A stretch of 35,191 nt of DNA from a virus (Duplodnaviria; Heunggongvirae; Uroviricota; Caudoviricetes): IMG/VR virus record IMGVR_UViG_2713896779_000022; one strand, 5' to 3'. The first letter of the stretch is position 1. Each line of letters begins with the position of its first letter. Under the pieces are notes generated by a model. It made no database searches. It worked only from the letters and a program-made list of their open reading frames with translations, and had not been told where the DNA came from. Shown here one piece after another: positions 20,370-29,345 of this stretch. Position numbers and translations under genes: made by a program.

Positions 20370-22121
20370 ATGATTCAGGACGCTTTTGTGCGCCAGCGTG
20401 CGCGGCAACTTTACTGGCAGGGTTATCCGCCCGCAGAAATATCACGTCTGATGGGAATAAACCCGAACACGATTTATGCGTGGAAAAAACGCGACCAGTG
20501 GGATGAAACGCCACCCGTGCAGCGTGTCACGCAGTCCATCGATGCGCGCCTCATCCAGCTTACTGAAAAACAGAATAAAACAGGCGGTGACTTTAAGGAA
20601 ATAGACCTGCTGACCCGGCAGCTTAAAAAACTGCATGATGGCCAGCCGGATGCGACGGTCACAGGAAAGAAAGGCCGGGCGAAAAAACTCAAAAATCATT
20701 TCACGCCGGAACAGATTGCCGCACTGCGGGAAAAAATCATCAGCAGGCTGGAGTGGCATCAGCGGGGCTGGTTTGATTCCCTGACCCTTTGCAGGGAAGC
20801 CGGGATACGTAACAGGATGATCCTGAAATCCCGACAGATTGGGGCGACCTGGTATTTTGCACAGGAAGCTCTGCTGATGGCGCTGCGTGACGATGTGGCG
20901 CAACCTTACCAGCGTAACCAGATTTTTTTGTCTGCGTCGCGTCGTCAGGCGTTCCAGTTTAAAAGCATTATTCAGAAGGCCGCGGCTGAAGTTGATGTGG
21001 AGCTGAAAGGGGGCGATAAAATCATCCTCTCCAACGGCGCAGAGCTGCATTTTCTCGGCACTTCTGCTGCGTCGGCACAGTCCTATACGGGCAATTTTTA
21101 TTTTGATGAATTTTTCTGGGTCAGTCGCTTTGCTGAACTGCGCAAGGTAGCTGGCGCTATGGCAACCCTCAGCGGACTGCGGCGCACCTACTTCTCCACG
21201 CCATCCACCGAAACGCACGAGGCATACGCCTACTGGAACGGCGACCGCTGGAACGAGAAAAAGGCCTCGCATAAACGCCAGCGTTTTTCTGTGGACTGGA
21301 AAACGCTGCATAACGGGCTTATCTGCCCTGACCGGACGTGGCGACAAATTGTCACGCTGGAAGATGTGGTTAATCACGGCTGGAAACACACCGATATTGA
21401 CGAAATCCGTGATGAAAACACCGAAGGCGAGTTCCTCAATCTCTATATGTGTGAGTTTGTTCGCGAAGGGGAATCGGCATTTAACCTGAATATCCTGATT
21501 GGCTGCGGTGTTGACGGATACGACGACTGGAAAGACTGGAAACCTTTTGCTCCCCGACCGATGGGGAATCGTCCGGTATGGATTGGGTATGACGCAAACG
21601 GCAGCAGTGGCAACGGCGACAGCGGCGCTGTGTCCGTGGTGGTTCCTCCGGCTGTTCCTGGTGGCCGTTTTCGAACGGTGGAGACGCGACGCGTTCAGGG
21701 GCTGGAGTTTGAAGAACAGGCCAGAGTCATTGAAGAGTTCACGTATCGCTACAACGTGGAACACATCGGCATTGATGTGACGGGCGGGAACGGGGAGGCT
21801 GTTTATCAGATAGTGAAACGGTTTTTCCCTGCTGCTATTCCGTACACCTTCACGCTGTCATCAAAACGGTCGCTGGTACTGAAAATGCTGCAAATAATGC
21901 GTGCCGGGCGGTGGGAATACGATCGCGCCGAACGCGAGCTGGTCGCGGCCTTTAACGCCGTGCGTAAGGTGAAAACACCGGGCGGCTTTATCACTTACGA
22001 AACGGACCGCGCGAGGGGGATCAGCCACGGCGACCTTGCGTGGGCAACCATGCTTGCTGTCATTAACGAACCGATTGGCGGCGAAGGAGAAAACGAGCGT
22101 TTCACGGTTATGGAGTTCTGA
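20370..22121 (+). CDS. P: terminase large (ATPase) subunit P
   Basis: 583 aa, P2 gpP-like size, divergent from O. Confidence 0.95.
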   Translation: MIQDAFVRQRARQLYWQGYPPAEISRLMGINPNTIYAWKKRDQWDETPPVQRVTQSIDARLIQLTEKQNKTGGDFKEIDLLTRQLKKLHDGQPDATVTGKKGRAKKLKNHFTPEQIAALREKIISRLEWHQRGWFDSLTLCREAGIRNRMILKSRQIGATWYFAQEALLMALRDDVAQPYQRNQIFLSASRRQAFQFKSIIQKAAAEVDVELKGGDKIILSNGAELHFLGTSAASAQSYTGNFYFDEFFWVSRFAELRKVAGAMATLSGLRRTYFSTPSTETHEAYAYWNGDRWNEKKASHKRQRFSVDWKTLHNGLICPDRTWRQIVTLEDVVNHGWKHTDIDEIRDENTEGEFLNLYMCEFVREGESAFNLNILIGCGVDGYDDWKDWKPFAPRPMGNRPVWIGYDANGSSGNGDSGAVSVVVPPAVPGGRFRTVETRRVQGLEFEEQARVIEEFTYRYNVEHIGIDVTGGNGEAVYQIVKRFFPAAIPYTFTLSSKRSLVLKMLQIMRAGRWEYDRAERELVAAFNAVRKVKTPGGFITYETDRARGISHGDLAWATMLAVINEPIGGEGENERFTVMEF

Positions 22122-23167
22122 TGAGCAGAAAAAATAAAAAAGTGCGCATGAGTTCACGCATTGATCTCGCTGATGCGCTCAGGAAAGAATCATCGCTCAG
22201 TGCATTCACATTTGATGGTCCTTATCGCCTGACCGGGCATGACCTGCTGGACAATATGTACTGTGCTGATAACGGGCGGTGGTATGAAACCCCGGTGGAC
22301 TGGTACGGTCTGGCAAGAGCTGCCCGGCAAACGTCCTGGCATCAGTCTGCGCTTTACTTTAAGCGCAATGTATTACTCGGTTGCTACATCCCGCACCCGC
22401 TGCTTTCCCGGCAGGATTTCTCGGCGCTGGCGCTGGACTGGTTTGTGTTCGGTAACGCATTCCTTGAGCTTCGAAGCAATATGCTCGGCGAACCGCTTAA
22501 ATTACGGCACGCACTGGCGAAATACATGCGACGCGGAAGCGATCTTGAATCATGGTGGTATGTGCAGGATGGCAAGGACGCGTTTCAGTTTCGCCCTGGC
22601 AAAGTGTGCCACCTGATGAATCCGGACATTAACCAGGAAATTTACGGCATGCCGGAATATCTTGGCGCATTACTCTCGGCCAGCCTGTCTCATTCGGCGG
22701 ACATGTTCAGAAAACTGTATTACGACAATGGATCCCACGCCGGGTGCATCATCTACATCGGTGCAGCGCAGGTAAACCGCGAAAGCATGGACTCCCTGAA
22801 AGAAACGTTACAGGGTGCGCGTGGTGGTGGTGCGTTTAAAAACGTGCTCATCCATGCTCCCAACGGGGGCAAAGAGGGGGGGCAAATTTTGCCGTTCCAG
22901 CAGATCACCGCAAAGGATGAGTTCATGAATGTTAAGGCGGCATCCCGTGATGATGTGCTGGCTGCGCACCTCGTTCCGCCGCAACTGATGGGGGCGATGC
23001 CGGGCGAAAAAAGTGCGTTTGGTGATGTGGAGAAGGCCGCGCGGGTTTACGCAATTAACGAGCTGATGCCCGTCATGGAGGCCATGAAGCACATCAATGA
23101 CTGGCTTGGCGAAGAGGTGATCCGCTTTAACCCTTACGCACTGTTAGACACCCAGCCCACATCCTGA
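22121..23167 (+). CDS. Q: portal vertex protein Q
   Basis: 348 aa, start overlapping P stop (TGATG); P2 gpQ size and position next to the cos region. Confidence 0.9.
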   Translation: MSRKNKKVRMSSRIDLADALRKESSLSAFTFDGPYRLTGHDLLDNMYCADNGRWYETPVDWYGLARAARQTSWHQSALYFKRNVLLGCYIPHPLLSRQDFSALALDWFVFGNAFLELRSNMLGEPLKLRHALAKYMRRGSDLESWWYVQDGKDAFQFRPGKVCHLMNPDINQEIYGMPEYLGALLSASLSHSADMFRKLYYDNGSHAGCIIYIGAAQVNRESMDSLKETLQGARGGGAFKNVLIHAPNGGKEGGQILPFQQITAKDEFMNVKAASRDDVLAAHLVPPQLMGAMPGEKSAFGDVEKAARVYAINELMPVMEAMKHINDWLGEEVIRFNPYALLDTQPTS

Positions 23168-23194
23168 CGCGCTTCGCTTGTCTGCTGCTTCGCC

Positions 23195-23217
23195 GGGGCA
23201 TAAAAAATTTATGCCCC
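23195..23217 (+). other. strong hairpin downstream of Q (possible terminator or cos-associated structure)
   Basis: GGGGCATAAA-aaa-TTTATGCCCC, 10-bp stem and 3-nt loop; no U-tract follows. Confidence 0.4.
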
Positions 23218-23590
23218 GACTCTCCAGCTCCTGTATCAGTCAGATAATTTCACGACGCCTTCCAGTTTATCGCCACCATCGACAGTCAGACTCTTACGCA
23301 ATCCCACCGCGTTGACTGCATGTTCTCGCCGTCTCAGTGCGATTTTGACGGCCTTACCTTTCACCCCATAAATCAAAAGCCCTCACGTCTTTTTCACGCT
23401 CAGCGTGAGAAATACAGCCATTCTGTTGTATCTCTGCGACATCGTTCAGGGAATGCTATTTACCCCCTGAAACGCGGGCTGTTCCCCCGTCACCTGCGCG
23501 CAGAAAAAACGCGTTTTTTTGTGCACGCACGGATCCTTGACGGATCCAGCCGCCATGCGGGCCGGAAGGGTAAAAAGTCGTTCAAAAAAA

Positions 23591-23631
23591 TTGTGCAAAT
23601 TTGTGCACTATCGTGCAGTGTGCATCGTGCT
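23591..23631. repeat. array of GTGCA iterons with ~10-bp periodicity
   Basis: TTGTGCA at 23591 and 23601, then GTGCA at 23613 and 23620 and GTGCT at 23627; ~60 bp upstream of the membrane-protein ORF, inside the Q-to-cargo non-coding region. Confidence 0.45.
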
Positions 23632-23696
23632 GTTTTCTGCGCAAAAAACGGATGGTAAATTTGTTCGTAGCAGGGAAATTTTAATGAGCGCAAGAC

Positions 23697-24227
23697 ATGA
23701 AGAAAGATTCATATCCTTATTTGATTTGCATGACTGTTTCAGTGCTAGGGATTATTTTCCTCTTTTACTGGTGGAGGGCAGATATCTACAGGATTACATA
23801 TCTTAATTCGCGTATATCCAATTATTACATCTTGTGTAGTATGGGTATATCCTTTTTCTTCTCCTTGTTTCTGGTGAAGAGGGGGGTAGTGAAGCAAAGT
23901 GGCTGGAAAGGACTGTCGGAATACCTGAAGGTTTATGCTGGCTCTTGCATTCTTACAGGGATATTCCTGATTATCCCTCTTATGATGGTGACTTATTTTT
24001 TACCAGGAGTAACATCATCATATGTTGCACCGTATGAGTATACATCCGGTAGTTCAAGAAGCTGTTCCGGAGCGTTTGTTGATGATCCCGATCTGCATAA
24101 AAATATTCTTATTTGCTATCCGTATGGTAACTATGAATATGACAATATTATCTATGTTGAAAAGAAAACTAATGCATTGGGCGTTGTTGTGACGTATGCA
24201 CAGACTGCACGAGACGATGCTGAATAA
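23697..24227 (+). CDS. AT-rich cargo gene: polytopic membrane protein of unknown function
   Basis: 176 aa with three predicted TM helices and a Tyr/Ser-rich C-terminal domain; markedly lower GC than the phage backbone. Confidence 0.6.
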   Translation: MKKDSYPYLICMTVSVLGIIFLFYWWRADIYRITYLNSRISNYYILCSMGISFFFSLFLVKRGVVKQSGWKGLSEYLKVYAGSCILTGIFLIIPLMMVTYFLPGVTSSYVAPYEYTSGSSRSCSGAFVDDPDLHKNILICYPYGNYEYDNIIYVEKKTNALGVVVTYAQTARDDAE

Positions 24228-24318
24228 GATACTACAGAGATAGTCCACTTTTTTTGTTTATTTGTCGGGATAAAAACAAATTACCCCGACTCACCATGTA
24301 TTAATCTTCCGCTTTAAG

Positions 24319-24702
24319 TTAGTCTTGTAGCTGCGCTGTCCTGCTATGCAGCAAAGCGGCGTACTTTAATGCGTCCTGTGCTTTCTGTAATTTAAGTGCA
24401 TAGTCAGTGGCGATTTTTTCCAGTTCAGCGATTCGGTTGTCTTTGGTTTCCAGCCAATCAAGTAGCGCCAATACTTCAGGATCCCCGACATCCAACACTG
24501 TTACGCGTGATTTTTCATAATGTTCGTCGGCAAGAGTTCGGCCAATTTTGAAATCTCCATCATCACCATAACCGGAGCAGGCATAAACAACCTGTGCTCC
24601 AGATATTCGCTGAATTGACATTTCCTCGCCGCAAATAGGGCATTTCGGTACTGGCACAGGTGAATAACGTTCACGTAATGCCTGATAGTTGATTTCGCTC
24701 AT
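24319..24702 (-). CDS. hypothetical protein with N-terminal Cys cluster (zinc-ribbon-like) and C-terminal coiled coil
   Basis: 127 aa; CPICGEE...YACSG then heptad-rich helix (IAELEKIATDYALKLQKAQDALKYAALL); downstream of parR on the same strand. Confidence 0.55.
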   Translation of the reverse strand: MSEINYQALRERYSPVPVPKCPICGEEMSIQRISGAQVVYACSGYGDDGDFKIGRTLADEHYEKSRVTVLDVGDPEVLALLDWLETKDNRIAELEKIATDYALKLQKAQDALKYAALLHSRTAQLQD

Positions 24703-24765: not shown

Positions 24766-25077
24766 TTATTCAGGAAATAACGCCCGGATATTTCCGGCCA
24801 TCTGACTGGTTATCTGTGCGGTTGATACTGGCTGTGATGCGGGGCGTTCTGTCCTGGTTTGTGTCAGGGATAACGCTTCATCGTCAGCCCATGCAGCCAG
24901 TCGGTAAGCCTCTGCCGGATTAATTTTCATAAGTGCCAGTCCGGCCAGAAAAGCCACGCGTTGACCACTTTTGCGGGCTTCTGGTGTAAGGCTGTCCAGC
25001 CAGGCGCATGCTTCGCCTTCGTTCTTGACGGCGGCGGGCTTCAGATAGAAACTTATCCGTCTGGTTGGTGTCGTCAT
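24766..25077 (-). CDS. parR: ParR/StbB-like centromere-binding adaptor
   Basis: Start at MTTPTRRISFYLKP with RBS AAGGAG 7 nt upstream, 4 nt after parM stop; resembles R1 ParR N-terminus (RRTIAFKL...LTAGLALY vs RRISFYL...FLAGLALM). Confidence 0.7.
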   Translation of the reverse strand: MTTPTRRISFYLKPAAVKNEGEACAWLDSLTPEARKSGQRVAFLAGLALMKINPAEAYRLAAWADDEALSLTQTRTERPASQPVSTAQITSQMAGNIRALFPE

Positions 25078-25081
25078 TGGT

Positions 25082-26041
25082 TTACTCCTTGTCCATTGCG
25101 TACAGCCCATTAACCAGAGCAAACTGTGGCACCCCGTCCGCGATGAAAGTCGCATTAACTCCGCAGGCTTCGCGGATAGCGGGTGCCACAATCTCCGCCC
25201 CGCCACCGACAACCATCACCCGCCCGTAACCCGAAAAGCCCGCCAGCGCGCGGATCACGCGTTGTTTCAGTGTTTCTTCCTTTTCACGAATAACCGCCAT
25301 CAGGCTGGCGTAATGCGCGTCATTGTGGATGTGCTGGCGCAACCAGGCTTCATCATGGCGATGTTCGATAATGGTATTGGCGATGTGGTGACTGGTACGC
25401 ATACCGTTAGTGGCCATCACCGACAGTACGGCATCGGCCATCAGGGAAACGCCTACGTGTGGATCGCAAAACACCTGGCTGATACCTGCCAGTTGCCCCT
25501 GAACCTTTGCCACATCCAGTGTGGTTCCGCCTAAATCCACAATCAGCAGGGATTCAAACGGACTCATGTCAGCCAGTGCTTTAAAGCCAGCCGGAATGGA
25601 TTCAGGCATAACCCGTACGTTACGGATAGTGAATGCTTCGCCGTTCTGGTACTCCACCGGGCGCATAACGTTCGATTTTTTGCGGCTGATGTTGGCCATA
25701 TCCGGCTGTGCGTTTGTGTCGAAATACTCGCTCAGTGGCAGGGTGACAACCACATCCACCTCCTGTGGCGTGATGCCTGATTTGACCAGTGCGTGATGAA
25801 TGGCAATGACATTCACATCGCTGTACTGGTATTGCGTGTCGGTCGTCTGGACAAAGCGATCGCTGACCGGATCAAAACCATAGCGCACGCCATCAAGCAT
25901 GTAGTTCGCGGGCTGCGTGCCACCGAACGGCGCAGACCATTCCGACTTGAAGCTGTTCGGGCTGATGGCGTTGCGGCGTTCGCCGTTCTCAGCCCATGCC
26001 AGCTTGATGTTGGTGGAGCCGTCGTCGATACAAATTTTCAT
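25082..26041 (-). CDS. parM: ParM/StbA actin-like plasmid segregation ATPase
   Basis: 319 aa; collinear resemblance to R1 ParM along the whole length (IDDGSTNIKL.W, ISPNSFK.EW, YSDVNV.A.HHAL, IRNV.VMPESIPAG, DLGGTTLD, GGGAE, LVNG.Y). Confidence 0.9.
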   Translation of the reverse strand: MKICIDDGSTNIKLAWAENGERRNAISPNSFKSEWSAPFGGTQPANYMLDGVRYGFDPVSDRFVQTTDTQYQYSDVNVIAIHHALVKSGITPQEVDVVVTLPLSEYFDTNAQPDMANISRKKSNVMRPVEYQNGEAFTIRNVRVMPESIPAGFKALADMSPFESLLIVDLGGTTLDVAKVQGQLAGISQVFCDPHVGVSLMADAVLSVMATNGMRTSHHIANTIIEHRHDEAWLRQHIHNDAHYASLMAVIREKEETLKQRVIRALAGFSGYGRVMVVGGGAEIVAPAIREACGVNATFIADGVPQFALVNGLYAMDKE

Positions 26042-26072: not shown

Positions 26073-26181
26073 TTTACAGGATTTTTAAATCCCGCTTTTG
26101 CCTGTTTTGTGCGCGCCTCATATATCGCGGCACGTTTTTTGCTCATTTACGGGATTTGTGAATCCCGTTTCTGTCTGTTTT
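26073..26181. repeat. parC-like centromere/operator: two ~36-bp direct repeats each with a GGATTT(n2-4)AAATCC palindrome, flanking the parM promoter
   Basis: TTTACAGGATTTTTAAATCCCGCTTTTGCCTGTTTT (26073-26108) and TTTACGGGATTTGTGAATCCCGTTTCTGTCTGTTTT (26146-26181); the second copy overlaps the last 12 codons of gene A. Confidence 0.6.
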
Positions 26182-28959
26182 TTTGTTTCCACTGGTCAGG
26201 CTACCCCGCAGCAGGTCTGCTTTGCGGTGGGCGCGTTCAGTGGTTTCACTGATTCTCTGTGCGTGCTCTGCGTCACGGATGGCGCGCAGCATGTCAGAAA
26301 GCACGGTAACGGGGGTGGGCATGGTGTTCTGGTCCTGCTGAAGTGTGGATACCAGACGTGCGGCGGCTTCGGGGTCTGATGCCCCCAGCTGTTCCAGATA
26401 GCTGGCGACCGGGTTATGGCGGATCTCCGTGCTGCTTACGCCGTGATTACGGCTCAGGCGCTGCCAGAGCTGCGTGATTTGGCTGTCCGGGCGGGTATCC
26501 GGTTTGCGTACAATTTCAAATCCCTGCGGTGCAATGATGCTGCCGTCAACGTACAGGCTGCCGCCCCGTAACAGGTGCTGCATCTGCTGTTCACCAATAT
26601 GCAGGCCGAGAGATTCAGCAGACTCCCGCCATTCTTTAGCGAGTAACTCGTGGTTATCAGGCAAAGGCTGTGGCTGTTTGCGGCTCTGTGTCCAGTTCTG
26701 CATTTCATCGCTGCTGTTTTTTGCCTGTTTGTCACGAAGCGAACGCATCAGCGCCCGGCGTTCGTGCCGTTTCAGTGAATGCATCCATTCGTTCACTTCA
26801 ACGCCGTCAGGAAGCTGCGGCCACGGTGCTGGCCGTTCTTCCGGCTGTTCTGTCCCGTTGTTGTCCGTTTCCTGTACACGGGGACAGTTATTGCCACGAG
26901 TCCAAGGGGCGGCAGGGCCGCCCTGAAGGTCAAAACCATTTTCGTGGGCGTTGTCTTCCGGTTCTGGTTTACGTCTTACCAGCTTCCAGTTATCCGGATG
27001 CGTGCACACACGGGAGGATTCCCCGATGAGTGGTGACCAGATCCCGTAAATCTGTACGCTCTGTTCGCCGTAATCGTTCAGCTCATCTGCGAGGTCGTAG
27101 GCGGTGCGAATCAGGTAGTCCTTGCGTGGAACAAGCACGCCACCCTGTTTTTCAATGTAGGTGGCAAAACACCCGGCATCGGCGGCAGCGAGTACCGCAT
27201 CCATTGCATCATCTTTCAGCCGTTGCGGGCCTTCCGGATTGCGTGCCATCTGGCTGGCAAGGCGGCGCAGTTCACGCCACACCTGACGGGAGGGGATGCC
27301 AAAGAACTGGAACTGACGGACCCGGTGAAGGCGCGCCCAGCCGATGGCGCGCTCCACGCTCTCGGCCATTGATTTACCTGTTTCGTGGTCAACGCGTGGC
27401 TTGCCCGTTTTCGGGTCGATGCCATCCACGGCGCGGCTGTCCAGGTTCTTTCCGATGTAGGTGGCGATGTAGCTGGTTGGCGTGCCTTTTGAGCCGTCGA
27501 CGTACTCCGCCTTAAAACGCGGAGTTATGTCATTGCCCTGCTCGTGGCGGTCTTCCTGAATGGCAATATCGCAGACGTGGGACACGATGGTTACAATCTC
27601 GTCAGGATGAGCAAAAACCATCATGTGCCAGTGCACCGTGCCGTCATGATGAGGCTCCACCGTGCGGATGCCATACCAGCGCAGGCCGTCGCGGTTCAGT
27701 TTTTTGCGGACCGCCGCAAAAAACGTGTTAACCAGGTAATCGCTGGAGTCGTGCATAGTGGCCCCGTTCCATTTGGGATTCGGATGACCGTTCTCCGTTG
27801 TTGCGTGGTATTTTGACGGGCAGGTGACAGTCAGAAACACCGCTCTGTCGCCACGGGCTTCGGCCAGAAGTTCCAGCCCCTTCATGGTGGCCATCATTTC
27901 TGCCTTACGGTGAACCGGGTTACTTACTCCCGCGTAATACACTGTCTCGAGATCAATCGTGAACCCGTCTTCATTTTCCAGCATGAAACTTTTCAGGAAA
28001 TCGCGTGTTTTCTCGCGCTGTGCGCGAAACTCGCTTAACGCGTCCTGGCTCAGATAGGGTGATGTTTTTCTGGAAACCAGACAGGCGGCGCGGAGTTGTT
28101 CTTCTCTCCACTCGCAACGTAACAGCCACAGTTTGCGTTTCCACCATTCCGCACAGGTCAGGCGAAGGATTGCGCCCGGCAGCAGCTCCGTGTCCGGTTC
28201 GTTCCTCCGGTCTTTGTCTGTTGTCAGTGCGTCATAATGTGGAGGCATGGCGTGCAGGTGTAACGCCATGCGGGCCAGCATCTGATACGCCTTCAGCGTT
28301 ACATCCATGGTCAGTTCGCCATCAGTCGCGCCAAAGCCATCGCAGAGTTTTTCGAAGGTGCTGCTGAACATCGCCGCCGTCATGGTGGCCAGCGTCTGTA
28401 TCTGGTGTTTGTTGAGCTGCGGCAGGTAAAGCAAATCGTCCAGGCGTTCGCGTCCGGCAAGGGAGCGATAACCCGGTGTCAGCCAGCGGTGATCGGTGCG
28501 GTCCAGACGTTCGAATATTTTGCGCAGGGTTCCGCGCGCGTAGCGTTCAGCCTGCCAGCTCTTTTTGCCTTTCTGGCGATCGGCTTCCTGTTTTTTGCGC
28601 AGGAAAGAGAGGTGGCGGCTCAGAGGTTCACGCAGATAAACGGGAAGCACCTTCAGTGTGGCAAAAGCACGGGCCACCGGGTCTTGTTCTGTTGCCTGAC
28701 GCTTGCTGATGATGCTTTGTGCCAGCTTTTCACGCTGTCCGGCTTCCTCAAGGGATGCCATGAGTTTTTTACCCACGGTGGATTGTGCGAAAAAGGCTTC
28801 CTCCTTCGCTTCCTGTTCTTCCAGAGCCTTTTTGTCTGCCTCAAGGTAGTAACGGATGGCGCGTTGCAGGTCGGTTTCAGTTTCCTGCCTGTGCTCCGTA
28901 AATCTGGCCGGATCAATGGCTGGCCGTGGTTCATTCCAGCTCCATGCAAACTCATTCAT
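26143..28959 (-). CDS. A: replication initiation protein A (rolling-circle endonuclease)
   Basis: Start at MNEFAWSW (ATGA overlap with upstream ORF); contains HUH-type motif TVHWHMMVF and catalytic Tyr pair in YIATYIGK; ~938 aa, longer than P2 gpA. Confidence 0.9.
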   Translation of the reverse strand: MNEFAWSWNEPRPAIDPARFTEHRQETETDLQRAIRYYLEADKKALEEQEAKEEAFFAQSTVGKKLMASLEEAGQREKLAQSIISKRQATEQDPVARAFATLKVLPVYLREPLSRHLSFLRKKQEADRQKGKKSWQAERYARGTLRKIFERLDRTDHRWLTPGYRSLAGRERLDDLLYLPQLNKHQIQTLATMTAAMFSSTFEKLCDGFGATDGELTMDVTLKAYQMLARMALHLHAMPPHYDALTTDKDRRNEPDTELLPGAILRLTCAEWWKRKLWLLRCEWREEQLRAACLVSRKTSPYLSQDALSEFRAQREKTRDFLKSFMLENEDGFTIDLETVYYAGVSNPVHRKAEMMATMKGLELLAEARGDRAVFLTVTCPSKYHATTENGHPNPKWNGATMHDSSDYLVNTFFAAVRKKLNRDGLRWYGIRTVEPHHDGTVHWHMMVFAHPDEIVTIVSHVCDIAIQEDRHEQGNDITPRFKAEYVDGSKGTPTSYIATYIGKNLDSRAVDGIDPKTGKPRVDHETGKSMAESVERAIGWARLHRVRQFQFFGIPSRQVWRELRRLASQMARNPEGPQRLKDDAMDAVLAAADAGCFATYIEKQGGVLVPRKDYLIRTAYDLADELNDYGEQSVQIYGIWSPLIGESSRVCTHPDNWKLVRRKPEPEDNAHENGFDLQGGPAAPWTRGNNCPRVQETDNNGTEQPEERPAPWPQLPDGVEVNEWMHSLKRHERRALMRSLRDKQAKNSSDEMQNWTQSRKQPQPLPDNHELLAKEWRESAESLGLHIGEQQMQHLLRGGSLYVDGSIIAPQGFEIVRKPDTRPDSQITQLWQRLSRNHGVSSTEIRHNPVASYLEQLGASDPEAAARLVSTLQQDQNTMPTPVTVLSDMLRAIRDAEHAQRISETTERAHRKADLLRGSLTSGNKKTDRNGIHKSRK

Positions 28960-29345
28960 GGCTGGTATCCCGTCACGCGCTGCCACTCCTGCGAGAAGAG
29001 GGCAGAAAGGCGGTTAAATTCAGCGGTGTATTCACTCAGCGAGGCACACCCGCCAGCAGTGCGATGCGCCAGCATTGCCGCAAATACGGAGGCCGGGGAG
29101 TCGTAATACGCCAGCAGTGATTCTCCGTGTGGTGTCAGGCAGTGCAACGCCAGCCCGTGTGGTGTGAAGTCCACGCGGTAGCAGTCGTCTACTGTGAAAT
29201 AAAGGGTGTCTGCATTCTCCGGTTTTGTGGTGCGTGCTCTGTTGTCACGACCACGGATGTAGAGATCAAATAATCCCTGAAGAACGGGAGCCAGACGGGT
29301 GTCCTGTGTGCGCACCCATCTTGTGAAGTCATGAGCGTCAATCAT
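28956..29345 (-). CDS. hypothetical early protein, translationally coupled to A
   Basis: 129-aa ORF whose stop overlaps the A start (ATGA). Confidence 0.6.
   Translation of the reverse strand: MIDAHDFTRWVRTQDTRLAPVLQGLFDLYIRGRDNRARTTKPENADTLYFTVDDCYRVDFTPHGLALHCLTPHGESLLAYYDSPASVFAAMLAHRTAGGCASLSEYTAEFNRLSALFSQEWQRVTGYQP

Follow-up and report, generated by a model that had tools for sequence, protein, structure and literature searches.

The window analysed here, a stretch of 35,191 nucleotides catalogued as IMG/VR virus record IMGVR_UViG_2713896779_000022, is a P88-like prophage (Xuanwuvirus, P2 family) of Escherichia coli. Between its portal gene Q and its replication gene A lies an open reading frame (ORF), here called the target gene, whose position and length of 176 amino acids had been given exactly in an earlier note on this DNA (the original prediction; coordinates in Table 1). 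We find that the target is a genuine accessory ('moron'-like) gene of the prophage in an exchangeable slot; in kind, it is an uncharacterised cargo gene of the published P2 hotspot. By profile searches its product belongs to a small uncharacterised gamma-proteobacterial family, PHROG 1416, and modelling gives good support to an inner-membrane protein with three transmembrane (TM) helices and a cytoplasmic N-terminus. The gene probably changes the cell envelope of the lysogen. Our leading guess as to how, to which we assign a probability of about 0.35, is superinfection exclusion at the envelope, in which entry of the incoming phage genome would be blocked.

The cos-proximal slot between Q and A is a known hotspot of P2-like phages and a reservoir of anti-phage genes, with many validated systems (Rousset et al., 2022, PMC9122126). 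Its cargo also includes non-defence genes, such as partition systems and the CDT toxin (PMC9122126), and antiviral activity has been predicted for 15–32% of the unknown proteins of P2-like phages (PMC13586616). The target lies between Q/cos and A, which upholds its original placement in the A-to-Q cargo hotspot, and the junction with the backbone is sharp: phages P88, Chuche, 503458, 705R2 and Shae_phiSM are 94–97% identical to the window up to ~23617–23620 and diverge thereafter, the same slot being filled by other genes in related P88-like phages. As the original prediction also held, the GC content of the gene (0.386) is much lower than that of the whole window (0.526) or of P, Q, parM and A (0.54–0.57). 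At the 3′ side, homology to the lineage of phage 434 and EC9, described below, stops at ~24231–24234, and homology to the P88-like backbone restarts at ~24332. The target is antiparallel to its neighbours in three different phage contexts. Its surroundings are 100% identical to E. coli O121 RM8352, and the locus is carried at ≥99% identity by 76 of 5426 complete E. coli genomes.

One occupant of the slot invites direct comparison. In the P88-like Citrobacter phage Shae_phiSM, memP (172 aa) stands in the identical slot, directly after the TTGTGCAG junction and on the same strand, and encodes a putative promembrane protein of PHROG 2284. A relationship to the target was rejected (BLASTP E = 0.24; different PHROG). 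The presence of this unrelated gene in the identical slot shows that the slot exchanges small membrane-protein cassettes.

Three segments of the target protein are hydrophobic (residues ~6–29, 38–61 and 71–101), with Kyte–Doolittle windows and AlphaFold helices in agreement, so that the polytopic character proposed for the protein is well founded. The AlphaFold model, made with a 32-sequence alignment (pLDDT 91.8, pTM 0.78), contains three long helices, a short strand at residues 34–36 in the TM1–TM2 loop and five C-terminal strands (105–116, 125–130, 135–140, 151–158 and 162–171). The C-terminus had been described as a Tyr/Gly/Ser-rich domain. Its 74 residues are indeed Tyr-rich (9 Y, 7 S, 5 G); nevertheless, they form a folded five-strand beta domain with two invariant cysteines in the model, not a low-complexity tail. 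A lipoprotein was considered and rejected, there being no valid lipobox and no conservation of C11.

Charge distribution among the 32 homologues orients the protein. The TM2–TM3 loop has 4.4 K+R versus 0.75 D+E and the N-terminus 1.6 K+R, both therefore being basic, whereas the TM1–TM2 loop and the C-terminal domain are not. The basic N-terminus and TM2–TM3 loop argue for an N-in, C-out topology. The sole invariant columns in the family alignment are C123, C140 and G162, and nearly all members have exactly two cysteines in the C-terminal domain. Charge bias and the invariant cysteine pair thus lend good support to a predicted beta domain of ~70 residues on the periplasmic face, which is probably held by a C123–C140 disulfide and docked to the strand of the TM1–TM2 loop. 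Conservation peaks in the periplasmic parts (the TFL strand, LPG, SxYxAxYxY, SCSGAxVxDPxL, IxICxPxG and KRxNxLGxVV); because it is concentrated there, the periplasmic domain is probably the functional end of the protein.

The only family matched by the protein is PHROG 1416 (phrog_1416, 'unknown function'; E = 1.6e-45, residues 90–175). Scans of the target protein against Pfam, NCBIfam and PADLOC gave no match (PADLOC-DB 2.0, no family at E up to 0.1), nor did a Pfam scan of all 32 family members, immunity families and NfeD included, and among PHROGs there was no functionally annotated match, superinfection exclusion included. A sequence-profile search of the PDB returned TM noise only. No structural neighbours of the model were detected; Foldseek had given weak OB-fold-like matches (SSB, ExoVII and CusF, at E of at least 0.1) with the first model. 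The statement that the protein has no recognisable family is therefore correct, the PHROG being unannotated. A profile search of 1.84 billion representative proteins yielded 56 cluster representatives, and most full-length members are ~166–190 aa long, share the same architecture and align end to end. In a 3074-aa repeat protein, positions 122–163 of the C-terminal domain profile were matched eleven times (E = 1.2e-10), probably a weak similarity amplified by the repeats. We found no functional study of the family in the literature by WP_000711110, WP_000711111 or mEp332.

Distant members of the family (27–56% identity) do not adjoin phage genes. In four Enterobacter species the locus of the homologue is conserved, with GGDEF, LysR, AI-2E-transporter and permease genes around it, and its GC content is host-like (0.50–0.53); differing chromosomal sites are used in Citrobacter, Pantoea, Pseudescherichia, Klebsiella, Phytobacter, Cedecea, Serratia and Pseudomonas. 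In Serratia, Pantoea, Citrobacter and Cedecea it is often a variable islet of low GC that houses the gene. Plasmid copies lie on Pantoea megaplasmids, or on a record resembling a chromosome fragment, with none found on a bacteriocin plasmid. Rooted at its midpoint, a neighbour-joining tree has the chromosomal members basal to the phage clade, which on this topology looks like the capture of a cellular gene. According to the original prediction, its functional proposal would have been undone by a gene widespread in unrelated non-phage contexts with a housekeeping role. The former part is borne out to some extent, by distant members in ordinary chromosomal loci, by the Enterobacter synteny and by the host-like GC; the latter is not, as the family is sporadic and missing from most strains, and hence not housekeeping.

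Some details of these chromosomal loci may be recorded here. In two Enterobacter species 17 bp separate the end of a LysR-family regulator gene from the homologue, which it precedes on the same strand; two other species have a different gene at that upstream position. Serratia was examined at two loci, and in each the homologue comes immediately downstream of ptsG, sharing its strand and sitting in a low-GC islet; one of the two loci has ptsG annotated, and in the other the neighbour is a 477-aa ORF that we take to be ptsG from its size only. PtsG is an inner-membrane factor for DNA entry by phage HK97. The adjacency in Serratia may be coincidental.

Closer homologues are carried by phages. 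In Salmonella and Enterobacter P2-like prophages, genes encoding 55–66%-identical proteins lie directly 3′ of Q, on the strand of Q and antiparallel to A. IMG/VR contains 14 P2-like loci with the gene (57–99% identity), again immediately 3′ of Q and on its strand. Because the Q proteins of these phages are themselves only 44–99% identical, the association of the gene with the slot is old. A further 64 IMG/VR loci are lambdoid, and all belong to one lineage of 79–80% identity. Phages 434, mEp332 and 2B8 have the gene in the interval from xis to exo, where it runs antisense to the pL operon. The phage 434 copy has in common with the window not only the region upstream of the gene but also two blocks of P88-like backbone (window 23420–23470 and 23557–23620), and lacks the window stretch between them (23471–23556). 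Likewise, in mEp332, 2B8 and the 64 IMG/VR lambdoid contigs the gene is accompanied by two P2-like cos-flank blocks from between which the candidate cos core is deleted. The lambdoid copy is sister to the copy in the window, inside the P2-like clade of the neighbour-joining tree. The simplest reading of these alignments and of the tree is that the gene passed once from a P2-like to a lambdoid phage, into its xis–exo region; cos-flank DNA would have travelled with it and the cos core would have been lost.

A quite different possibility is that the gene does nothing, being either a decaying pseudogene or a spurious ORF in AT-rich cargo DNA. PGAP/RefSeq labels 23652–24227 as 'frameshifted' in four genomes (O121 RM8352, 14EC020, H3 and S87), a G6 homopolymer (23880–23885) lies within codons 61–63, and N-truncated versions of 112 aa that start at the GTG of V65 occur on >1000 contigs in the protein collection, entries for which slippage, sequencing error and gene-caller choice are all candidate origins. 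However, the same 531-nt frame is an ordinary coding sequence, WP_000711113, in O45:H2 and O103:H2, and the ORF is intact in six of six complete-genome copies, each with the G6 run; frameshifting or phase variation at this run was accordingly rejected. The reference proteins of the lambdoid lineage have an unconserved N-terminal extension (191–223 aa in total). In the window that upstream extension is shut by an in-frame TAA–TGA, and the MKK(D/Y)SY N-terminus (MKKDSY here) lines up with the N-termini of distant homologues. The RefSeq call arises from the over-extended N-termini of the reference proteins, and we conclude that the 'frameshifted pseudogene' label is an artefact.

Comparison with the ~80%-identical phage 434 copy gave dN 0.116 and dS 1.17 (omega ~0.10, and 0.076 in the C-terminal domain), values by which the target is under purifying selection. 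The phage 434 copy and the copy in a decayed prophage remnant (EC9) differ by 7 synonymous changes and by none of 176 amino acids. Of 5426 complete E. coli genomes, 83 have this remnant, which adjoins torI and dsdC; the genes that flank the homologue there are pseudogenes, and the homologue itself has been retained intact. With a dN/dS of ~0.1 and a confidently predicted fold, the view that the gene is non-functional is very improbable and effectively refuted.

The gene appears to bring its own expression signals. An extended −10 element, TG(G/A)TAA(A/T/G)TT, is kept at −44 to −48 relative to the ATG in the copies of phage 434, EC9, the Salmonella and Enterobacter P2-like prophages, Citrobacter and Cedecea, despite saturation of synonymous sites in the coding region (dS ~1.1). 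A dyad that overlies the −35 region, a 12-nt palindrome with 92% self-complementarity, has its arms kept and its spacer sequence varied in the phage 434, EC9, Salmonella, Enterobacter P2-like and Citrobacter copies, and P88-like phages with different cargo do not have the dyad sequence. Dyad and extended −10 stand at a fixed distance from the ATG across the phage-associated clade, the chromosomal copies of Citrobacter and Cedecea included. On this pattern of conservation the dyad is a candidate operator or activator site. Generic scanning for promoters and terminators flagged neither on the + strand, with the conserved extended −10 and dyad present. More distant homologues have an ACAAGGA Shine–Dalgarno-like motif in place of the phage-clade promoter. 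The −10 region (23653–23662, (G)GTAAATTT / GATAAATT) resembles the high-affinity H-NS motif, TCGATAAATT, and from this likeness and the 39% GC content, H-NS may silence the cassette in laboratory conditions.

The original prediction drew attention to an array of GTGCA iterons ahead of the gene. The array is real, with four GTGCA on the + strand within 32 bp (23593, 23603, 23613 and 23620), a number reached by none of 2000 first-order Markov random sequences, but it does not belong to the gene. In Shae_phiSM, P88, Chuche, 503458 and 705R2 the repeats are kept up to ...GTGCAG and unrelated cargo follows directly; cargo cassettes are exchanged exactly after this point. The repeats are present in the Salmonella and Enterobacter P2-like loci too, and in the phage 434 copy they are largely degenerate, with one exact GTGCA left. 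Because they are conserved alongside unrelated cargo, the repeats are, as judged from these alignments, an element of the P2-like backbone that marks the backbone/cargo junction, and no part of the gene cassette.

The repeats lie 65–95 bp from an imperfect palindrome that is kept in all P88-like phages aligned and is part of the segment that the phage 434 copy lacks. Like cos in P2, the palindrome is situated between Q and the cargo, and we infer that it is a candidate for the cos cleavage region, or core, of the P88-like phages. The gene had been described as next to cos. Gene order and the conserved 35-bp palindrome agree with this description, but cos in the window is itself inferred. The window does not contain the 19-mer of the P2 cos, the cos regions and intergenic sequences of P2 and the window do not align, and cos is not mentioned in the P88 paper. 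In P2 three ATGCA repeats, 10–12 bp apart, occupy the corresponding place between cos and the old–tin start. The repeat array may be a binding site for terminase or for an architectural protein, and by analogy with lambda cosB a role in packaging recognition is possible. A scan of 23100–24400 against Rfam gave no match.

In its placement the target resembles the P2 old–tin cassette, which lies in the slot between cos and A, reads away from cos and is antiparallel to A. The mapped old–tin start is ~150 bp from cosR, and the predicted start of the target is ~150 bp from the cos-like palindrome; short phased xTGCA repeats stand between cos and promoter in P2 too. By the P2 annotation, both old and tin serve lysogenic conversion and block other phages. 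Old, however, is a soluble ATPase/nuclease and Tin is soluble, and neither resembles the target in sequence or architecture. A second comparison is with SieA of phage P22, a protein of 162–164 aa with three predicted TM helices that is located in the inner membrane and is alone sufficient against DNA injection (PMC10883804). Like the target, it is the product of a single small prophage gene, and its size and TM count are close to those of the target. Homology was rejected, as hhalign of the family profile against SieA gave a probability of 0.2% and the SieA motif FxRYPxEAxxFNK is absent. Moreover, the conserved motif of SieA is predicted to be cytoplasmic, whereas the conserved part of the target family is the predicted periplasmic two-Cys beta domain, and SieA types diverge fast, whereas the target family is strongly conserved.

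HK97 gp15, T4 Imm/Sp and Cor/Llp are small phage or prophage envelope proteins that act from the membrane or periplasm, and have one or two TM helices or are lipoproteins. Some such excluders reportedly target a host factor for DNA entry, as Cumby et al. are said to have described in 2012 and 2015. None of these proteins is known to have the architecture of three TM helices plus a beta domain, and no sequence relation between them and the target was detected, the sole PHROG match of the target being the unannotated phrog_1416. Short NfeD-like proteins are laid out in a similar way, with a few TM helices at the N-terminus and then a small beta-barrel domain of ~70 residues. An NfeD-like identity was not upheld (Pfam NfeD in 0 of 32 members; no structural match). 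The OB domain of NfeD is cytoplasmic and NfeD is paired with SPFH/stomatin genes; no SPFH/stomatin gene was seen in the contexts of target homologues examined.

We rank superinfection exclusion first because of the slot, which holds old and tin in P2 and validated systems elsewhere, because the end of the protein that appears to do the work is periplasmic, and because there is precedent for small single-gene excluders such as P22 SieA. The target would be transcribed in the lysogen from its own predicted extended −10 promoter, with the dyad over the −35; at the outer face of the inner membrane, its periplasmic domain would bind a conserved component of the host envelope; and the lysogen would benefit in that genome entry by a superinfecting phage is blocked through this host factor. 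Benefit through killing of the cell is less likely. A fuller version, which we advance tentatively, is that the family is a novel single-gene exclusion family whose disulfide-bonded periplasmic beta domain blocks genome entry via a conserved host envelope factor, and that it was captured from a cellular gene, stayed long beside cos and was then passed to lambdoids such as 434. Several points weigh against exclusion. No homology ties the family to it, in comparisons with SieA, annotated PHROGs and PADLOC. The basal members, in stable non-mobile chromosomal loci with host-like GC, suggest that the family first had a cellular role. From Pseudomonas to E. coli the periplasmic domain shows strong conservation, a pattern unlike that of arms-race proteins; for contrast, SieA types are <30% identical to one another (PMC10883804). 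The predicted promoter falls below threshold in a generic sigma-70 scan, which did not flag the extended −10 because the −35 is weak, and the disulfide is a prediction from the invariant cysteine pair. Of the two effectors originally offered as candidates, exclusion remains plausible, albeit with no relation to SieA or to an exclusion PHROG, and abortive infection is the weaker, given a lone gene, periplasmic conservation and no defence model.

The same chromosomal evidence lends itself to a protein that serves lysogenic conversion or host physiology and takes no part in phage defence, a possibility that we rank only slightly below exclusion. Here a captured inner-membrane protein would use its aromatic-rich periplasmic beta domain to bind peptidoglycan, a lipid-linked glycan or a periplasmic protein, and would thereby alter envelope homeostasis, stress tolerance or host colonisation. 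Ordinary chromosomal contexts are consistent with this (the four Enterobacter species at GC 0.50–0.53, Klebsiella, Phytobacter, Pseudomonas and the Pantoea megaplasmids), as are the basal chromosomal members of the midpoint-rooted tree, strong purifying selection with C-terminal motifs conserved across genera, the intact gene kept in the decayed remnant of 83 E. coli genomes, and the non-defence cargo of the P2 hotspot, e.g. partition systems and CDT toxin (PMC9122126). However, neighbours vary between genera and give no functional clue, the phage copies occupy slots enriched for exclusion genes, and the sporadic occurrence of the family, missing from most strains, argues against housekeeping. 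Orphan immunity to a toxin that targets the envelope, for example a bacteriocin that forms pores or attacks peptidoglycan, or a type VI secretion (T6SS) or CDI effector, appears unlikely. The architecture is broadly like that of membrane-anchored immunity proteins, and a small inner-membrane protein with a conserved periplasmic domain, sporadic, always a single gene and often in the variable low-GC islets of Serratia, Pantoea, Citrobacter and Cedecea, would suit such a function; yet no toxin, bacteriocin, lysis or secretion gene adjoins it in the ~20 contexts examined, Pfam immunity families match none of the 32 members, and no plasmid copy is on a bacteriocin plasmid. We think it improbable, finally, that the protein is an abortive-infection effector by which, after infection has been sensed, the inner membrane is depolarised or made permeable. 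The position in a defence hotspot would accord with this, a pore from three TM helices is possible if the protein is oligomeric, and transmembrane proteins are frequent as suicide effectors in defence systems (PMC9122126). However, none of the contexts supplies a sensor partner, and the gene stands alone in all of them (the neighbours at the Salmonella and Enterobacter loci include no consistent partner gene); it is the periplasmic domain, not the TM or cytoplasmic parts, in which conservation is concentrated and dN/dS is lowest. Phage sensing would be expected on the cytoplasmic side, where the protein has short loops only, stable orthologues of host-like GC in chromosomes are unexpected for a latent toxin, and no PADLOC model matches.

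Table 1. Features of the target locus (window coordinates) and predicted topology of the target protein (residues)
Feature	Position	Strand	Remarks
Terminase gene P	20370–22121	+	
Portal gene Q	22121–23167	+	
Q-to-target intergenic region			529 bp
Hairpin after Q	23194–23218	+	perfect 11-bp stem; positional equivalent of the P2 tQ terminator
Palindrome	23495–23529		imperfect, 15+15, TGCGCGCAGAAAAAA/TTTTTTGTGCACGCA; halves TGCGCGCAGAAAAAACG and CGTTTTTTTGTGCACGCA
GTGCA repeats	23591–23624	+	three TTGTGCA/TCGTGCA in 10-bp phase (23591–23617), plus a fourth GTGCA
Dyad GTTTT-N8-AAAAC (GTTTTCTGCGCAAAAAAC)	23632–23649		overlies the −35 region of the predicted promoter
Extended −10, TGgTAAATT	23653–23661 (hexamer 23656–23661)	+	predicted; transcript start expected at ~23668
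Target ORF	23697–24227	+	176 aa, 531 nt
Hairpin GTCGGG...CCCCGAC	24264–24290		in the AT-rich spacer between target and Ea22-like fragment
Ea22-like fragment	24319–24702	−	Pfam match and RefSeq annotation of the identical O121 locus
StbB/ParR-like gene	24766–25077	−	Pfam match and RefSeq annotation of the identical O121 locus
ParM gene	25082–26041	−	Pfam match and RefSeq annotation of the identical O121 locus
Replication gene A	26143–28986	−	Pfam scan
N-terminus			predicted cytoplasmic
TM1	residues 6–29		predicted
TM1–TM2 loop			predicted periplasmic, with strand 34–36
TM2	residues 38–61		predicted
TM2–TM3 loop	residues 62–70		predicted cytoplasmic, basic
TM3	residues 71–101		predicted
Beta domain	residues 105–171		predicted periplasmic

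The target is convergent with the Ea22-like fragment, from which it is separated by an AT-rich spacer. The hairpin in this spacer has no U-run on either strand and was not flagged by the terminator scan, and neither that scan nor folding revealed a clean intrinsic terminator 3′ of the target; at the other end of the intergenic region, the hairpin after Q corresponds to tQ, which the P2 annotation places directly after Q. No functional tie between the target and the Ea22-like, StbB or ParM genes was seen at the locus, and homologues of the target exist without these genes in Salmonella, Enterobacter and lambdoid contexts. The truncated Ea22-like ORF has an N-terminal CxxC...C motif resembling a zinc ribbon. 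The hotspot additionally houses the ParM/StbB actin-type partition pair. About one-quarter of P2-like phages have a ParM/StbB-type partition system (Rousset et al., 2022, PMC9122126), carriage of which hints at plasmid-like maintenance.

To what was known of this hotspot we add a probable passage of cargo from P2-like to lambdoid phages together with cos-flank DNA, a conserved predicted promoter and dyad placed like the old promoter of P2, an assignment of the GTGCA repeats to the backbone instead of the gene, and the RefSeq pseudogene artefact. In practice, a gene that is intact and under selection is called a pseudogene by RefSeq in some genomes, and the backbone repeats beside the candidate cos may bear on packaging. 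If the target proves not to act in exclusion, it would exemplify the borrowing of a cellular envelope protein by phages, and would show that the cargo of a defence hotspot is not always defence. If exclusion is its function, it would enlarge the known repertoire of the P2 hotspot by a compact system made up of one protein, present in prophages of STEC (E. coli that makes Shiga toxin) O121, O103 and O45, in phage 434 and, as a remnant, in 83 of 5426 complete E. coli genomes, and it would offer a tractable model of how a periplasm-facing domain stops genome entry.

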